64,000 nucleotides of DNA from an uncultured Phycisphaerales bacterium (GTDB lineage: Bacteria; Planctomycetota; Phycisphaerae; Tepidisphaerales; Tepidisphaeraceae). The stretch covers positions 1,280,001 to 1,344,000 of the forward strand of contig CAVWVQ010000003.1 in assembly GCA_963758525.1 (NCBI GenBank), in the 5' to 3' direction. Below the pieces are notes generated by a model. The model had not been told where the DNA came from, did not search any database, and was given only the letters and a program-made list of their open reading frames with translations. Positions 12,357-59,477 of this stretch are shown one piece after another. Position numbers and translations under genes: made by a program. The stretch's first letter is position 1. Each line of letters opens with the position of its first letter.

Positions 12357-12657
12357 ATGGCGTTGGATCTGACCCCCGGCAAGACCGTCCGCGTGACGGT
12401 GAGCAAAAAAATCAATCGCGCATCAGCGCAAGACCATCGAGCGATTGTTCATGAAGGACAAGGCGATCGTCCTGCCGATCAAGATCCGCAGCCGCAATTT
12501 CAAAGAGCTGCCCAAGCGCCGCGGCGGCCAGATCTGGACCAAGCGGCCCAATAAGGTGCACTGCTCGGTCGAGAGAGGCGCCGCCGCCACGATTAAGACC
12601 ACGCCTCAGGCGATTCGCGATTTGAACAGCGTCGCGACGTTCATCTCCATCGCGTAA
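12357..12657 (+). CDS. Small basic hypothetical protein; apparent frameshift near 12428
   Basis: GGAG RBS; MALDLTPGKTVRVTVSKKINRASA continues in another frame as KTIERLFMKDK...LNSVATFISIA. Confidence 0.65.
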
Positions 12658-12925
12658 CACGGGTTTCCAACCCGTGCGAGCAGCGCCGAGTTCAAGAGAT
12701 GATCCGCTCCGAGTGAGGGGACGCGCAGCGGCTGCACGCCGAGGGTCAATTTCGTCTTAAAAGGAATTGGGGGGGCAGCGCAACTGGATGAACCACGGCG
12801 CTCGCACGGGTTGGGAAACCCGTGGTACACAAAAGCAGTTTGGTTTCCCGCCGAGCATCAGGAATGGGGAGCAGCGGGAGTGGATGAACCACGCCACTCG
12901 CACGGGTTGGGAAACCCGTGGTACG
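12654..12925. repeat. Cluster of three GTAC/GTAA-CACGGGTTTCCAACCCGTGCGA REPs
   Basis: Copies at 12654-12679 (+), 12802-12828 and 12898-12925 (inverted); same family as the REPs bounding the RAYT insert in dinG. Confidence 0.9.
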
Positions 12926-30752: not shown

Positions 30753-31190
30753 AATGGCCACAAAAAGCACAAGAAACACAAAGGAAAGGTGGAATGTTCC
30801 CGTGGTGCTGGGGCGAACCGATGGACGCGATCCCCGGTGCGGCTTTTTCTTTTTTGTGTCTTTTGTGCCTTTTCGCGGCCATCTCTCTTCTCCCCGGATC
30901 AGAAGAACGCATGGCCGGTACGCGAACCGACGCATCGATATCAACAGAAGGACGCCGGTTGCGTGGCGCACCCCGGCTGGTGCCGAGAGCGAGTCTTGAT
31001 TGTCGTCTTCTGCGAATCGGGAATTGCGTCCCCTGTGGCATGGGCGTCCCGCGCGTCCCGCCCCTGCTGGCTGCATCGGAGGTAAAACCAATCAAGATCG
31101 CCATATGCAATCCACGCTTTTCTTTCTGCCGCGCAACTAACACGGGCGAGACGCCCGTGCCACAGGGAGGTGGGACGCCCATGCCACGGG
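30753..31190. repeat. Intergenic cluster of two repeat families (CACAAAA/TTTTGTG inverted arrays; GTGGCATGGGCGTCCC / GGGACGCCCATGCCAC REPs)
   Basis: Arrays at 30753-30785 and 30850-30882; REP arms near 31035-31065 and 31141-31188. The REP family also occurs near 16783, 20565-20600, 25063-25090 and 27903. Confidence 0.8.
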
Positions 31191-31198
31191 GAAATGTT

Positions 31199-33907
31199 TC
31201 ATCTTGCGGAGCCTTCCTTGCATGCAGGGAGGGCGTCGAGGAATAGTTTTCCGTATCGTTTGGTGCGGACCCGGCTATCGAGGATCACGACGATTCCCTT
31301 GTCCGTCCGGCTGCGGATCAATCTCCCGAAACCCTGCTTCAGCTTGATGATTGCTTCGGGGACTGAATATTCCATGAAGGGGTTGCCGCCGTTCTTCTTG
31401 ATTGATTCGAGCCGTGCTTCGACCACGGGTTCATCCGGAACGGCAAAGGGGAGTTTGACGATAATCACATTGCGGAGGCGGTCCCCCTGCACGTCGATCC
31501 CCTGCCAGAAACTGCTGGTGCCGAAGAGAACGCCGTTTTCGCTGTCGCGAAACCGATCGAGGAGCGTGCCGCGCGGCGTGCCGTCTCCCTGGACCAGCAG
31601 ACGATAGCCGCGTGACTCGATACGCTGACGCAGCCGCTCGGCCGCTTCGCGGAGCATGGAGTAGCTCGTGAAGAGGACAAATGCCCCGCCGCTGGTGAGA
31701 TTCACGTACTGCATGATCTTCTCGCAAGCCGCGGGCAAAAAGCGCAGCGTATCGCTGGGTTCGGGAAGATCTGTTTCGAGATAGAGCGTCGCCTGCGAGG
31801 CATAGTCGAAAGGCGATCCCAGTTGCAGCGTCTGCGTTGATTCGATGCCAAGGCGAGCTTGGATGTAGGCGAACGCCGGGTCCGTACCACGGGTTTCCAA
31901 CCCGTGCGAGTGGCTCGGTTCCCCCGTACCACGGGTTTCCAACCCGTGCGAGCCGCGTGGCACTGCCGAATCCCCCATTATCAAATCCAACGCTTTCTGA
32001 TTCACCCCCCTCCAAATCCAGTCATTCAACCCGCTCTTTTCCGGATTCCCGATCGCGTATTCCACCGCATGTATAAGGTCCTTCTCGTCGCGAACAAGAT
32101 GGTCGTAGTACTCGGTCAGCCAGTATTCTCCACTTCGGTTGAGCAGCTTGTTTGCTGCTCGCGCCGTCCAGAGTTTCCAGGAATGAAGAACCGCGTGCAG
32201 TTCGACGCCCCGCAGCGGCTGCAGCACCACATGGACGTGATTCGGCATGATGCACCATGCCAACAGCCTATACCGCTCGCCATCGAAGTGCTTCAGCGCA
32301 TTCTCCACCATCTCCGCAATTTCAGGCTCGCCAAGTGTGCATGAGCCATGGCCGGCGTCGAGATACGACTCGACCCGATCGGAGTACAGGTATTCCAATC
32401 GCTTTAGCTCGTCGGCAGATAGCGGCCGTCTTTGATCACGCGCCGTCTCGATAATGGCTTGGCGCTCAGTACGCCAGCTCTTGAGAACTTCGGCTGGCAG
32501 GGAATCCGCAAGGCGAAAACATACTGCATAAATCGACCCGTTCTTTGTCCAGTGCGGGAGACGGGCGCCCTGGCGGACCTGAAGATTACTTTTACTCGGC
32601 GCCGTTCGCACGGGTTGGAAACCCGTGGTACGCGAGGTGCAGAGGGTTGCGCTGGTGAGCACCACGCTCTTCACCTTCTCGAACAGATGCGTCTTGAGGC
32701 CCGAGGCGATGCTCACGGGGGCGGCGTGAAGCGCGAGCTTGCGCGACGGACCTTTGGACAGGTCCATCCAATACACCGTGTCATCCACGGCCTGGCTCAT
32801 GATGGCTTCAAGCATGGCGGCGGTATTGGCGATTTTGTCGGCCGTGCTGCTCAGCTCGGAAATCTCGGCGTCTTCCGTCAGCGATGGCAGCATCGCCTTG
32901 AGATGGAGCGAAAGATTGCGCAGTTTCGGGGAGAGGTCGTTTTCGACCACGTGCGGCTGATCGATCCGGCCGTTGCCGCGGCCCTGCTCGCGCTGCCAAT
33001 CGGCGCAGCGGTCGAAAAAGGCGTCGGTCAGAATGTGCAGTTCTTCCACGTCGCGGATCGCGTCGTTGGCGGCCGAAGCGTGCGTGCTGAGCATCCCCTT
33101 GCCGCGTTTGGGATCGTGAAGCATGCGGAGCTGATATCGCATGCCGTTCTCGGTGATGTTCATTCCAAAGTGACTGGCGGCGACGTCTTCGATGGTGTGG
33201 CCTTCATCGAAAATCACGGCGTCGTACTTTGGCAGATAGTTGATGCCCGCCATGCGCAGCGCCAGATCGGAGAAGAACAGCGCGTGATTGACGATGAGAA
33301 TCGTTCCGTTTTGCATGCGGCGTTTGGCTGCCTGCCAGAAGCATTCGTTGTAGTAATTGCACTTCTTGCCGAGGCAGTTTCCATGTTCCGCGCAGACGCG
33401 GTCCCACACGCCCGGCTCGGGCTCGACGGGCAAATCAGATCGTGACCCGTCGCGGGTTTCGGTGGCCCATTTCTCGATATCCCACAGCGACTCGAGCTGC
33501 CGTTGCTGTTCGAACAGCGACCCCTGCCGCGCGCGTGTCTGTTCCAGTCGCCGCTGGCAGAGATAGTTGCCGCGCCCCTTCACCAGCACGGCGGTAAATT
33601 CGTCGGGATAGACCGCCTGCAGGAGCGGGATGTCTTTCTGGATTAACTGTTCCTGCAAAGCGATGGTGTGGGTCGAGATGACGATGCGCTTTTGTTTGCG
33701 CACGGCGAAGTCGATCGCCGGCAGGAGATATGCGAAGGACTTGCCGACGCCGGTGCCCGCCTCGACGAGCAGATGATGTTCGTCGGTCAGCGCGCGCTCG
33801 ACAGCCTCGGCCATCTCCAATTGCTGCGGGCGAAACTCGTAACGCTCGCCAAGCCGGCGCGCGACGGCGCCATCGGGGGCGAGAATTGATTCCAGCGCGG
33901 AGGACAT
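31199..33907 (-). CDS. dinG: DinG/YoaA-family Fe-S helicase interrupted in frame by a RAYT transposase domain
   Basis: RPQQ, EAGTGVGKS, KGRGNYLC plus Cys cluster, NHALF, DEGH, LTSATL, LFTSY, FWQGIDV, KLPF, KQGFGRLIR. Confidence 0.95.
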   Translation of the reverse strand: MSSALESILAPDGAVARRLGERYEFRPQQLEMAEAVERALTDEHHLLVEAGTGVGKSFAYLLPAIDFAVRKQKRIVISTHTIALQEQLIQKDIPLLQAVYPDEFTAVLVKGRGNYLCQRRLEQTRARQGSLFEQQRQLESLWDIEKWATETRDGSRSDLPVEPEPGVWDRVCAEHGNCLGKKCNYYNECFWQAAKRRMQNGTILIVNHALFFSDLALRMAGINYLPKYDAVIFDEGHTIEDVAASHFGMNITENGMRYQLRMLHDPKRGKGMLSTHASAANDAIRDVEELHILTDAFFDRCADWQREQGRGNGRIDQPHVVENDLSPKLRNLSLHLKAMLPSLTEDAEISELSSTADKIANTAAMLEAIMSQAVDDTVYWMDLSKGPSRKLALHAAPVSIASGLKTHLFEKVKSVVLTSATLCTSRTTGFQPVRTAPSKSNLQVRQGARLPHWTKNGSIYAVCFRLADSLPAEVLKSWRTERQAIIETARDQRRPLSADELKRLEYLYSDRVESYLDAGHGSCTLGEPEIAEMVENALKHFDGERYRLLAWCIMPNHVHVVLQPLRGVELHAVLHSWKLWTARAANKLLNRSGEYWLTEYYDHLVRDEKDLIHAVEYAIGNPEKSGLNDWIWRGVNQKALDLIMGDSAVPRGSHGLETRGTGEPSHSHGLETRGTDPAFAYIQARLGIESTQTLQLGSPFDYASQATLYLETDLPEPSDTLRFLPAACEKIMQYVNLTSGGAFVLFTSYSMLREAAERLRQRIESRGYRLLVQGDGTPRGTLLDRFRDSENGVLFGTSSFWQGIDVQGDRLRNVIIVKLPFAVPDEPVVEARLESIKKNGGNPFMEYSVPEAIIKLKQGFGRLIRSRTDKGIVVILDSRVRTKRYGKLFLDALPACKEGSAR
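31883..32632 (-). mobile_element. REP-bounded RAYT (Y1 HUH transposase) cassette inside dinG
   Basis: RLPHW...Y.V.FRLADSLP, MPNHVH (HUH), HSWK..TAR, W..EYYDH.VR, EY..GNP; 27-bp perfect inverted REPs at both ends plus a third REP at 31925-31951. Confidence 0.92.
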
Positions 33908-33926
33908 TGAGGCATCTTAGCGAGCG

Positions 33927-34203
33927 AGGGTTCAGGGTGTCAGGGGTCAGGGTGTCAGGGTTCAGGGTTCAGGGTGTCAGGGGTCAGGGGGTCAGGGGGT
34001 CAGGGGGTCAGGGGGTCAGGGGGTCAGGGGGTCAGGGGGTCAGGGGGTCAGGGGGTCAGGGATTCGAGTTCCGAACAACTATTGCGACCCGCAATGCGGG
34101 GCTGTCGTTCGCGCAGCGTACTTCAACACCCGGTCCCGCGACTCTTCCTGAACCCTGAACCCTGAACCCTGAACCCTGAACCCTGAACCCCGAACCCTGA
34201 CCC
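33927..34203. repeat. GGTTCAG heptamer and GGGGGTCA octamer array with an inverted CTGAACC array
   Basis: G-rich tandem array at 33927-34060 and C-rich array at 34148-34203. Confidence 0.9.
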
Positions 34204-55821: not shown

Positions 55822-58662
55822 ATGCAGCTCAAAGCACCCTGTCCCAAATGCGGCAAGCGCGCCCGGTATGCCGAAGCCGAGGCGGGGCTTCCCGCCGTCT
55901 GTCACGCCTGCGGGACGCGCTTCACGCTCCCAACGATCGTGGCTCCTTCCTCCGCCGAGGATATTCCTTTTGCCGAACCGATTCGGGATCCGCGCGCGAC
56001 CATGCAGACCTGGGTCTGGGCGGCGCTGGCCGGGGGAGTCGCGATCGGCGCAATGGTCGGGGTCATTGCCGCGGTCATCGTTACGCGGGCGCACGAAACG
56101 CCGCCAGTGGCCACGACTGCGAATTCGACTGAAAACAGACCGGCCATTCCCGCGCCGCCCAACCAAACGAATATCACGCCTCCTCCCGCCGCTCCGGCAT
56201 CTGAGGATGACCACGCCGAGCCAAGTCCCGCGCAACCGCCATCGAGTCCAAATCCAGCGCCGCGGACTTCATTCGCATCGGCACGGGATGCTTCAGTCGC
56301 GCCGCCAGCGCCTCCGGCATTGTCTGCCCCGCGCGGGCCCGCAAAGCCGCACGGTGTCCTTGCTCCGTCGGCGGATGGAACCTCCGCCGGCTCGTCGCCC
56401 CGGCCTCCGATTCGGCCGATCGTCGAACCGACCGACACGCTCACCGACGCACGCATCGGCAAGGCGATCACCGATGGCGTCAACTATCTCGTGACACAGC
56501 TCGACGACAAGACGCACGAGCTGCGGCAGAACCGCGCGGACTTTCAAAATTTCGGCGGCGGACGCCCCGATGCCGGCGCCTACTTCGGCGGGCTGGACGC
56601 GCTGTGTGTCTACGCCCTGCTGCAAAGCGGCCAGGCGATTCCCGACAACCGGCTGAGCATCAAAAGCCCATACATGATCGGTCTGCTGGAGCAGATGAAG
56701 AAACTGCCGAATCAGTCCGGCAAAGTCGTCTACGCCAGAGCGATCCGCGCCACGGCGCTCACGCTGTATAACCGACCGGAAGACCGCACCGCCATCAAGG
56801 GCGACCTGGAATGGCTCCTCAAGGCGAGTCAGAACGGCGCGTACACTTACGACAAAGTCGATCCATCCACGGCAGCACGCTTACGCTATTTGCCGGCGGG
56901 GATGAATCCCTGGGACAACTCCTGTTCGCAATACGGACTGCTCGGCGTCTGGTCGGCCGCGGAAGCGGGGTTTGAAGTACCAACCTTGTACTGGAAGCAA
57001 GTGGAAGATCATTGGACGAAGAACCAGATGCCGAATGGCGAATGGGGATATCAGACGCCCCAGACCGGCGCCGGCCGGCTCTCGATGACCGCGGCGGGGG
57101 TCGCGTCGCTCTTCGTCACACACGACTGGCTCGCGGCGCCGAAGTTTGGCAATGAAGTCGGACGCGATCCGTTCTCTCCCGCCTTGCTCAAAGGCCTCGA
57201 CTGGTTCGAAAACGGCAGCCATTCCGTCGACACCTCCACTTCCGATTGGTTGGGCTACACGCTGTATGGCATCGAGCGCGTCGGGCTTGCGTCCGGCTTT
57301 AAATATTTTGGCTCGCACGACTGGTATCGCGAAATCGCCCGCCAGGTGATCGATGCGCAAAATCCCAATGGCTCGTGGAACCCCCAGGAAGCCAGCGACA
57401 CGCCGTATGTCCTGCTGTTTCTGGCCCGCGGACGCCATCCGATTCTCATGAACAAGCTCCGCTTCGACGGCTTCTGGTCCAATCGCCCGCGCGATTTGTC
57501 CAATCTCTCGCGCTACGCCTCAGGGGAAATGGAGCAGCCGGTCAACTGGCAGGTGGTTCCCATCACCCACGACTGGACGGATTGGACCGACTGCCCAATC
57601 CTCTACATGGCCAGCCACAAGGCGCCGACGCTGACCGATGAAGAGTACGACAAGATCCGCAATTTCATTCAGTCCGGCGGTCTTCTCTTCACTCAGGCCG
57701 ATGGCGACAATCCGGAGTTCAACAGTTTTGTGGAGGAGATGTCAAAGAAGCTCTTCCCCGACTACCCGCTCAAGGACCTTTCGCCCGACAGCCCGCTGTT
57801 CTCAGTGCTGTTTCACATGCAGCTCAAGCCGAAGCTCAAGGCGGTCAGCAACGGCGCGCGACTCCTGATCGTGCATTCCCCGACCGACCTTTCCCGCGCC
57901 TGGCAGCTGCGCCAGCAGAAGGTCGCGAAGATGCCATTCGAATTTGCGCTCAATCTCTTCCAATACGCGTCGGGCCGCCATGAGCTGCGCAACCGGCTCG
58001 AAACCAATGTCATCGCCGCTCCCAAAGCGGTCCCTTCCTATACCATTGCCGTCGCCCGGCTGCGATACGGGGGGAACTGGGATCCCGAACCCTATGCGTG
58101 GACGCGCTTCTCCCGCTGGTTCCAATTGCAGACCGGATATGGCATCGACGTGAGACCCGTCGACATGAGCGAGCTGACGCCGCAGGCCGCCCCAATAGCG
58201 ATTCTCACCGGCACCGACGCCTACGGTCCCAAGCCTGCCGAGGTCGACGCCGTGCGGAAGTATGTGCAAGCCGGCGGCGTCCTCTTCGTCGACTTGGCCG
58301 GTGGCGGCGGCGCGTTTGAGGAGAGCGCGCGCACCAAGCTCTTTGCCCGCGCTTTTCCCAACGGCTTTTTGCGCGTGCTGCCTCCCGATCATCCCCTCCT
58401 CAACACCGGCGCGCCCGGCATGGCGGACCTCAGCCACCCGCGGTTGCGGCCCTTCGCGCTGGAAAAGCTGGGAAGTCCCACCAATGAATTCCCCAGCTCT
58501 TTTGCCGCCGGCCGCGGCCATGTCGTCTTCACGCCTCTGGACATGACCTGCGGCCTGCTCGGCACCAACACCTGGGGAATTCTCGGATACGCCCCGGACT
58601 ACAGCCAGGAGTTTATCAAAAACCTGCTGCTTTGGATGGTGGACGGGCAGAATGATCAGTAA
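55822..58662 (+). CDS. Zinc-ribbon, TM and Pro-rich linker followed by prenyltransferase/squalene-cyclase-like repeats and two DUF4159-like domains
   Basis: CPKC/CHAC; WDNS.SQY..LG, Q..NG.WGY, YTLYGIERVG, W..Q..NGSW; two modules with GG.LF.[QD]. Confidence 0.8.
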   Translation: MQLKAPCPKCGKRARYAEAEAGLPAVCHACGTRFTLPTIVAPSSAEDIPFAEPIRDPRATMQTWVWAALAGGVAIGAMVGVIAAVIVTRAHETPPVATTANSTENRPAIPAPPNQTNITPPPAAPASEDDHAEPSPAQPPSSPNPAPRTSFASARDASVAPPAPPALSAPRGPAKPHGVLAPSADGTSAGSSPRPPIRPIVEPTDTLTDARIGKAITDGVNYLVTQLDDKTHELRQNRADFQNFGGGRPDAGAYFGGLDALCVYALLQSGQAIPDNRLSIKSPYMIGLLEQMKKLPNQSGKVVYARAIRATALTLYNRPEDRTAIKGDLEWLLKASQNGAYTYDKVDPSTAARLRYLPAGMNPWDNSCSQYGLLGVWSAAEAGFEVPTLYWKQVEDHWTKNQMPNGEWGYQTPQTGAGRLSMTAAGVASLFVTHDWLAAPKFGNEVGRDPFSPALLKGLDWFENGSHSVDTSTSDWLGYTLYGIERVGLASGFKYFGSHDWYREIARQVIDAQNPNGSWNPQEASDTPYVLLFLARGRHPILMNKLRFDGFWSNRPRDLSNLSRYASGEMEQPVNWQVVPITHDWTDWTDCPILYMASHKAPTLTDEEYDKIRNFIQSGGLLFTQADGDNPEFNSFVEEMSKKLFPDYPLKDLSPDSPLFSVLFHMQLKPKLKAVSNGARLLIVHSPTDLSRAWQLRQQKVAKMPFEFALNLFQYASGRHELRNRLETNVIAAPKAVPSYTIAVARLRYGGNWDPEPYAWTRFSRWFQLQTGYGIDVRPVDMSELTPQAAPIAILTGTDAYGPKPAEVDAVRKYVQAGGVLFVDLAGGGGAFEESARTKLFARAFPNGFLRVLPPDHPLLNTGAPGMADLSHPRLRPFALEKLGSPTNEFPSSFAAGRGHVVFTPLDMTCGLLGTNTWGILGYAPDYSQEFIKNLLLWMVDGQNDQ

Positions 58663-58773
58663 CACGGGTTTCCAACCCGTGCGAATTGCTCTCGATTGGA
58701 GAAGGTCGCTGTTTGCTAATCCTACAGCGCTACTGAATTAGCGCCGCTCGCACGGGTTGGAAACCCGTGGTAC
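58659..58773. repeat. Inverted doublet of the CACGGGTTTCCAACCCGTG REP between convergent genes
   Basis: Arms at 58659-58684 and 58748-58773. Confidence 0.92.
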
Positions 58774-59477
58774 TTCAGCCGCCGGATTCGCAGCAACTCC
58801 CGCGCGTTGCGGATGGTCCCGGCTACCGGGTCGTACCGCGTGTCCCCATCGTCGCGCCAGCACACGGGAACTTCGATGATCTTGCAGCCGAGCATCTGTG
58901 CGATACGAAGGATTTCCACGTCGAACATGTAACCGTCCACCTGCTGCATCGCGAAGATGCGGTGGGCGATGTCGCCGCGGAAGAATTTAAACCCGCACTG
59001 GGTATCGCGGATGCCGCGCAGGCCGACGAGATTGCGCATCACCGCGTGAAACGCGCCGGAGCCGAGGCGGCGGTACAGAGGCTGCGGCACGTCGATGCGC
59101 GAGTTGACTAGCTTTCGCGAGCCAATGACAACGTCCGCGCCAGCCGTGAACGACGGCAGCATCGCGTCCAGCTCCTCGATCGGAGTTTTGTAGTCCGCGT
59201 CGACGAAGCCGATGATTCGGCCGGTGGAGCGGAGCACCCCCTCGCGCACGCCATGCCCTTTGCCCAGCCGCGCTGAACTCCCGAGCACCACGATCCGCGG
59301 ATCGCGCTGTGCCAGTTCGCTGGCCCGCTCGCGCGTGCCATCGTCTCCGTCGGCGCACAAAATGATTTCGCCGGTGAGGCGGCGCTTCTGCAGATATCCG
59401 CCGATCGCTTCGAGCGTCGAGACGATTCGTTCCGCTTCGTTGTAAGCGGGAACGACAATGCTCAACTCCAGCGGCAT
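58722..59477 (-). CDS. GT2 polyprenol-phosphate glycosyltransferase (dolichyl-phosphate glucosyltransferase-like)
   Basis: SIVVPAYNE, GKGHGVR.G, FVDAD, GSR, DTQCGFKFF, FDVEIL. Confidence 0.92.
   Translation of the reverse strand: MPLELSIVVPAYNEAERIVSTLEAIGGYLQKRRLTGEIILCADGDDGTRERASELAQRDPRIVVLGSSARLGKGHGVREGVLRSTGRIIGFVDADYKTPIEELDAMLPSFTAGADVVIGSRKLVNSRIDVPQPLYRRLGSGAFHAVMRNLVGLRGIRDTQCGFKFFRGDIAHRIFAMQQVDGYMFDVEILRIAQMLGCKIIEVPVCWRDDGDTRYDPVAGTIRNARELLRIRRLKYHGFPTRASGANSVAL

Follow-up and report, generated by a model that had tools for sequence, protein, structure and literature searches.

An in-frame REPtron after motif III of a Tepidisphaeraceae dinG-like helicase gene, probably an unspliced passenger that is sometimes lost or replaced

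The dinG/YoaA-like helicase gene of an uncultured Phycisphaerales bacterium of the family Tepidisphaeraceae (GenBank assembly GCA_963758525.1, here G000) carries a 750-bp cassette just after helicase motif III, in which a RAYT (REP-associated tyrosine transposase) domain is bounded by repetitive extragenic palindromes (REPs). The gene lies in a stretch of 64,000 nucleotides (contig CAVWVQ010000003.1, positions 1,280,001 to 1,344,000), here called the window, whose numbering is used for coordinates unless another contig label is given. The interpretation that we consider probable is that this in-frame REPtron is an unspliced passenger of a working helicase, which spreads its own REPs and is sometimes lost or replaced at its site. 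An original prediction, made from the letters of the window, had offered three options, namely an element in a tolerant loop that uses host expression without splicing, an insert removed through its 27-bp stem, or a helicase-HUH chimera. The first is the best supported, with the qualification that the element is an old resident and that the fusion is already in print, while the other two are disfavoured for the reasons given below.

Architecture of the cassette in the source genome

The dinG open reading frame (ORF; 33907-31199, minus strand) encodes 902 amino acids with zero internal stops, and the cassette at 31883-32632 occupies codons 426-675 in the layout REP-RAYT-REP, so that both the uninterrupted helicase frame and the in-frame insert of the original prediction are confirmed. 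The features are as follows.

31199..33907, minus strand: dinG/YoaA-like helicase gene, 902 codons, host of the cassette (ORF and profile matches; model matches E. coli DinG 6FWR)
32633..33907, minus strand: helicase N-part, codons 1-425 (ORF and NCBIfam profiles)
32606..32632, minus strand: upstream REP, translated (exact 27-mer; GTAC foot pointing outward, 8-bp stem; holds an in-frame GTG)
31988..32587, minus strand: RAYT / TnpA-REP domain, about residues 441-640, with H557, H559, W596, Y617 and N621 (profiles, 4ER8 alignment, model)
31925..31951, plus strand: inner REP on the downstream side, translated and inverted with respect to the upstream copy (exact 27-mer)
31883..31909, plus strand: outer downstream REP, identical to the inner copy and 42 bp apart from it (exact 27-mer)
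31199..31882, minus strand: helicase C-part, codons 676-902, with Helicase_C_2 and motif VI (profile matches)
12653..12679, plus strand: dispersed copy of the cassette REP with a GTAA foot (pattern search of the window)
58658..58774, no single strand: REPIN, a feet-outward pair of the cassette REP (58658 plus, 58748 minus; pattern search of the window)

The dinG product fits the DinG/XPD family, with superfamily 2 motifs, iron-sulfur (FeS) and Arch domains and a four-domain fold, and it scores under the NCBIfam equivalog cut-offs for both YoaA and DinG. Codons 1-425 contain what we take to be Walker A, the FeS cysteines, DEGH and motif III (LTSATL). This is the single DinG-family gene found in G000, an assembly that is 91% complete. 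In an AlphaFold2 model of the 902-residue fusion (mean pLDDT 79.5, pTM 0.63), the RAYT forms a separate domain on two tethers of low confidence (426-441 and 646-674), and the remaining protein matches E. coli DinG 6FWR.

The assignment of the insert to the RAYTs, which the original prediction had made from motifs, holds at the catalytic positions, with profile scores on either side of their cut-offs. Residues 426-675 match Pfam Y1_Tnp with 24.9 bits (cut-off 23) and NCBIfam REP_Tyr_transpos (NF047646) with 63.6 bits (E 1.8e-17), the latter under its cut-off of 80. The best sequence match in the PDB is E. coli TnpA-REP 4ER8 (E 0.0023), with whose catalytic positions H557-V-H559, W596 and Y617...N621-P of the insert align. 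The perfect 27-bp inverted outer repeats and the third copy at 31925 were recovered as exact matches, and the REP peptides and the helicase junction read as claimed. The embedded RAYT has no stop codon of its own, its REPs being translated as part of the dinG ORF. As to a separate start, no in-frame ATG, GTG or TTG occurs between the REP and the LPHW motif in G000, although the Val codon within the REP stem is an in-frame GTG.

Six sites in the window match the core of the cassette REP, where 0.01 would be expected. Instead of the five further copies claimed, only three (12653, 58658 and 58748) are present. When up to 4 mismatches are allowed, G000 as a whole has 82 copies, of which one tandem array accounts for 21, and the dispersed exact-pattern copies are homogeneous (41 of 47 identical). 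The foot of the REP in G000 is GTAC (41) or GTAA (23), not the canonical GT[AG]G. The RAYT itself is single-copy: G000 yields one match at E<=1e-25, and so do 57 of the 66 genomes that yield any. Of the 38 RAYT-family matches in G000, the dinG-embedded one alone is flanked by the cassette REP.

An assembly artefact at repeats could be suspected given the 82 genomic copies. Yet the cassette lies in a 5-Mb contig, and 50 genomes, counting own and others, hold the insert closed and in frame. Three DNA sequencing runs, and no RNA run, were listed as holders (shares under 0.1). One of the three, X2, yielded a 213-nt contig that bridges the junction of helicase, REP and RAYT (32551-32763) and differs at 3 positions, at low depth and from a run that may or may not be independent of the source sample. 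The same architecture in 57 genomes and many database proteins refutes an artefact at the family level, and for G000 we regard it as extremely improbable. The one joint in run X2 that seemed to skip 682 nt was rejected as an excised allele, for which the original prediction had suggested searching the reads, since it carries 48 other letters and its loose end matches the REPIN at 58658; it therefore represents a dispersed REPIN.

Several further repeat features of G000 were recorded. The tandem array (C3:4444749-4445547, outside the window) holds 21 GTAA-foot copies at a period of 38-39 bp. REPs or a REPIN also lie in frame within other long reading frames of putative genes, at C3:2156568-2160239, C3:1190789-1193416, C3:2212060-2214834 and C3:1277559-1281164, the last reaching into the window at 1-1164. 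About a dozen near-identical free RAYT-like genes on several contigs share a 28-copy flanking 16-mer and constitute a separate IS-like family. Next to dinG, a low-complexity tandem repeat with units of 7-8 nt (33912-33997) directly precedes the start codon, and related REPs with a GTGG foot (31031-31191) directly follow the gene. This GTGG-foot family, with 98 copies in G000, is less uniform (23 distinct 23-mers), adjoins none of the 38 RAYT matches and is possibly a fossil of earlier cassettes.

Occupancy, exchange and REP content across the family

Of 141 family genomes, 130 yielded a dinG gene, and 128 loci were taken in, with G112 and G148 left out. In 57 of them the same loop is filled, in 14 it is empty with REP relics, in 54 it is clean, and 3 loci are cut off short of its far end; in one of these three, G118, the RAYT is joined to the helicase C-part on another contig. 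The clean rows include the unpublished G004, on which alone no claim rests. The 121 closed loci divide into 50 filled in frame, 3 filled but broken (by an assembly gap, a linker stop and frameshifts, respectively) and 68 empty. Empty loops range from 7 to 149 residues, and the loop is therefore tolerant. Filled alleles are scattered over the host tree and extend to the base of the family; the 116 rows of that tree (12 loci were left out as open or short) require at least 26 changes of state. All 21 dinG genes of class-level outgroups in which both halves could be matched are empty. The cassette is an old, family-wide resident of the dinG loop, not a fresh event.

Both partners appear intact in filled alleles. 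H557, H559 and W596 are conserved in 49/49 and Y617 and N621 in 48/49 RAYTs, and the helicases retain Walker A (48/48), DE[AG]H (49/49) and motif VI (48/49), being as intact as in empty alleles. In two clearly vertical pairs the RAYT dN/dS is ~0.06 and ~0.14. One allele (L004, in G032) has Cys at the catalytic Tyr position, yet its genome holds 47 REPs of the matching foot class.

Removal of the insert at the DNA or RNA level via the long REP duplex, leaving a normal DinG of about 650 residues, would be consistent with the ~30-bp duplex that the outer REPs close in folded RNA (z -3.2), with the frame-keeping of a REP-to-REP excision and with the identity of the two cassette REPs over 23 nt in 27/48 cassettes. 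However, the in-frame state is no sign of excision because any coding insert keeps frame. No intron or intein family was matched in the insert, no Hint splicing domain occurs among the Pfam and NCBIfam matches at E<=0.001, and an Rfam scan of 31000-34000 at E<=1 returned only one weak unrelated match outside the insert. If the insert were removed, a stop codon after the RAYT, at the place where free RAYTs terminate, would do no harm, yet just 1 of 53 closed cassettes has one, while 50 of 53 have stop-free in-frame linkers. In a side observation, locus L060 (G108) has a stop between the RAYT and the helicase C-part. Losses are ragged: the relic in G001, from the genus of G000, consists of one REP and what resembles the first RAYT residues. 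Six other relic loops (G014, G092, G136, G153, G154 and G156) hold two REPs, the first reverse and the second forward, as a deletion between direct copies would leave them. Ragged losses and stop-free linkers together argue against programmed removal, which we deem very unlikely. With no splicing module and a stop behind the RAYT in a single case, it is the full fusion that likely works as DinG.

The cassette appears to have been exchanged between lineages at this one site, judging by sequence distances. Of the 13 nearest-neighbour pairs whose DinGs share 80% identity or more, ten have a RAYT identity of 46-56% and three of 63-83%, against a background mean of 51%; one discordant pair combines 96% identity in DinG with 52% in the RAYT. 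Only 4 of 21 strong host splits are recovered in the RAYT tree, and the GC content at third codon positions is lower in the RAYT than in its host in 50/50 cases (0.67 vs 0.83). In G106/G107, the host shows dS of 0.36-0.57 and dN of 0.01-0.02, while the RAYT shows dN of 0.45 with dS saturated. Each of these two genomes holds both REP families (122 and 132; 72 and 149 copies) but one cassette apiece; the 149-copy family of G107 (locus L065) has a GTCG foot, which the GT[AG]N pattern does not cover. Exchange boundaries vary by pair, lying outside the REPs in G106/G107 and between them in G007/G116. A regain may also be traced. G143 is filled, while G146 (host dS 0.11-0.14), G144 and G145 share a 57-nt empty loop, and the flanks of G143 follow G146 to 3 nt before the loop and again from 16 nt after it. 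Any incoming flank is therefore limited to ~30-35 nt, and the G143 lineage likely regained its cassette with under ~35 bp of flank. The downstream REP of this cassette (L070) is interrupted by a 21-bp hairpin.

Genomes with the cassette also hold REPs of the cassette family. At least 10 copies of the general REP pattern occur in 51/57 genomes with filled loops (median 86), 13/14 with relics and 5/54 with clean loops (median 0), and of the independent pairs ~11.5 point in the same direction and none in the opposite (p ~0.0005). Within one cassette, the two REPs have the same foot in 47/48 (shuffle mean 13.8, max 25) and the same loop in 34/48 (shuffle mean 5.3). A canonical GT[AG]G foot is seen in 38 of 54 classified family cassettes, and at least 10 REPs with a non-G foot are found in 15/16 genomes whose cassette has such a foot versus 6/38 others. 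The embedded enzyme is thus likely active and multiplying its own REPs, as this correlation suggests. The residue equivalent to Q95 (RAYT residue 597, Leu in G000) is other than Q in 8/16 cassettes with a non-G foot vs 4/37 with a canonical foot (Fisher p 0.0035); since kin are not independent, this association is only a lead.

A number of observations weigh against the activity or the exchange of the cassette. Five clean-loop genomes have at least 10 REPs and six filled genomes have fewer than 10, although in three of these six the stems were missed by the REP pattern. The match of foot types fails to reach significance once independent pairs are counted (3 same, 0 opposite, 5 tied), and as G000 is incomplete, another cognate RAYT could be missing from it. 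A vertical signal remains (Mantel r 0.49), with 3 of the 13 close pairs keeping related RAYTs, and the regain is seen in the single case of G143, for which no donor was found. Third-position mismatch is not raised beside the loop in 9 swap pairs vs 9 control pairs, hence no co-conversion tract is seen. Finally, approximately unbiased (AU) tests, based on an unstable quick search on a star-like tree, did not reject host-like RAYT clades in 3/3 cases (G106+G107, G088-G090 and G080+G081; p 0.73, 0.23 and 0.27), and exchange therefore rests on distances, not topology.

The Mantel correlation and the AU tests would equally suit one ancient insertion inherited vertically with many losses, in which discordant pairs reflect fast, uneven RAYT evolution and REP "orthoswitches" rather than replacement. 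Filled alleles at the base of the family tree and relic alleles, which are real losses, fit this account as well, and orthoswitches have been described for free RAYTs (PMC3686654, as far as the available text goes). Yet the RAYT dN would have to be five-fold higher, and its dS saturated, in pairs whose hosts are closer than those of G088/G089 (RAYT dN 0.09). Linkers outside the REPs are unalignable between G106 and G107, while empty loops at similar distance align, and G143 would require three parallel losses to the same 57-nt loop. Purely vertical descent is accordingly rated as improbable, and replacement at the site as the better account of the discordant pairs.

Other host genes and known systems

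RAYTs of the same clade reside in frame in other genes, as the original prediction had suggested might be found. A survey of hosts, covering the best 120 of 1309 long homologues, found them in AlaRS, IspG, MetH, ValRS, TatD, HsdR and several methylases. At the class level (16 of 18 loci parsed; 7 scanned with Pfam) the hosts were ValRS (8), methylases and ETF-beta, and one RAYT gene was free. Where valS is the resident gene, in families of the class other than this one, seven loci (L162, L163, L165, L167, L168, L173 and L174) share one site and L161 has a second, and some AlaRS, IspG, MetH and DUF1156 methylase proteins contain two separate RAYT domains each (P0002, P0003, P0006, P0007, P0008, P0014 and P0030). 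JGI auto-annotation names the DinG fusion proteins helicase/RayT, and the names of close homologues indicate Tepidisphaeraceae. RAYTs group mostly by host gene, on a tree with a poorly resolved backbone. Short clade members with their own Met exist, and the idea of an obligately in-frame cassette was rejected on their account.

These hosts bear on the view that the fusion is a domesticated helicase-HUH chimera, kept because DinG unwinds DNA and passes single strands to the RAYT. The long residence within one family and the tendency of DinG-resident RAYTs to share a C-terminal helix and to cluster apart from most other hosts are in line with such coupling, and single-stranded DNA is the substrate of both activities according to the available portions of PMC3479197 and PMC11981726. 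However, the occurrence of the same clade in ValRS, methylases, ETF-beta and the further hosts named argues against a helicase-specific partnership. So do the short proteins with their own Met, the 68 of 121 closed dinG alleles that do without a RAYT, the predicted disorder of the tethers and the pairing of near-identical DinGs with unrelated RAYTs. We consider the chimera unlikely, while local help from the helicase to the RAYT may occur.

Seen as a passenger REPtron, the cassette resembles E. coli TnpA-REP (4ER8) and the class 2 RAYTs in its HUH, W and Y...NP motifs, which are nearest to subclass 2.7 (PMC6006769, as excerpted). It also shares the feet-outward inverted REPs around the gene, the single copy, the cognate REP/REPIN family in the genome and the persistence of fossils of earlier REP classes, comparable to the orthoswitch, i.e., REP switches at syntenic free RAYTs (PMC3686654, in the part available). 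It differs in lying inside a host ORF, without its own stop and with translated REPs, rather than as an extragenic stand-alone gene, and in its GTAC/GTAA foot in G000. Moreover, it is apparently exchanged, whereas RAYTs are described as extragenic, vertical and host-congruent in the accessible text of bioRxiv 10.1101/2021.07.10.451892 and treated as vertical in that of PMC5581495. Quentin et al. 2018 dropped over-long members as fusions or annotation errors (PMC6006769, methods as available). The DinG fusion architecture is already published: the available sections on Humisphaera borealis place a 4ER8-like domain within motor domain 1 of a Tepidisphaerales DinG (PMC11981726, section 3.10, Fig. 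11C). There the domain is called incidentally acquired, while REPs, empty alleles, exchange, genome-wide repeats and other hosts go unmentioned. No description of REP-bounded in-frame RAYT cassettes was found in open-licence PMC and bioRxiv literature, and the reading as an active, exchangeable intragenic REPtron is absent from the searchable open literature.

Two further groups of elements invite comparison. Intragenic REPs and the Rickettsia RPEs are likewise palindromic repeats in frame inside housekeeping and repair genes, with their peptides in loops, but are 20-30-residue repeats without a transposase, while dinG holds a whole autonomous unit (PMC3733652, in the available part). A homing element converts empty alleles at one site by means of the nuclease that it encodes; the site in dinG is fixed, with apparent regain and exchange, in which the RAYT may play such a part. 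IStrons, like the cassette, carry a transposase, theirs being of the IS200/IS605 type. The cassette lacks any detected protein- or RNA-splicing module, its nuclease is a single-strand HUH enzyme, and its neutrality, unlike that of inteins or IStrons, appears to come from loop tolerance. Like inteins with homing endonucleases and IStrons (PMC4227781, as partly available), it is a mobile unit tolerated in a host gene beside a conserved motif, with filled and empty alleles.

Proposed mechanism and significance

In the mechanism that we propose, the promoter and start codon of dinG would express the stopless RAYT, and the REP-coded peptides would serve as flexible tethers. TnpA-REP is a monomer that binds the REP as a single strand; the foot selects the dinucleotide at which it cleaves, the distance being variable, and the enzyme is capable of strand transfer (PMC3479197 and PMC8266576, in the parts available). 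A monomeric RAYT could function while tethered. The HUH domain may thus bind single-stranded REP hairpins, nick and rejoin DNA like the E. coli enzyme and seed REPINs. In one enzyme a GTAC foot made GA and GT the cutting sites (PMC8266576, in the text at hand), and the GTAC foot of the G000 cassette predicts cuts at these same dinucleotides in place of CT. Cassettes would be lost when the stretch between two direct REP copies is deleted, or else through deletions with ragged ends. Gain and exchange could proceed through an incoming, horizontally acquired dinG allele, with crossovers at shared REP stems or at the conserved codons bounding the loop, possibly triggered by a nick of the RAYT. It could further be speculated, though we hold this rather doubtful, that the cassette is a splice-less analogue of homing inteins: an active HUH cassette that stays for good as one domain in a housekeeping enzyme, drives its own re-entry or exchange with a few dozen flanking bases and thereby reprograms the REPs of the genome.

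The finding accounts for the large group of database proteins in which a Y1_Tnp domain looks out of place. With filled, relic and empty alleles in close relatives, and with Humisphaera borealis as a cultured carrier known from the literature, the cost, the activity and the homing of the cassette can be tested directly, and the natural foot variants (GTAG, GTGG, GTGA, GTAC, GTAT, GTGT and GTCG) are a ready panel for the rules of cut-site choice. In published descriptions RAYTs are single-copy, extragenic genes without mobility of their own, and some benefit to the host is taken to explain their persistence. A RAYT that borrows the expression of a housekeeping gene and apparently turns over at a fixed site would need no such benefit and would be a mobile element after all.

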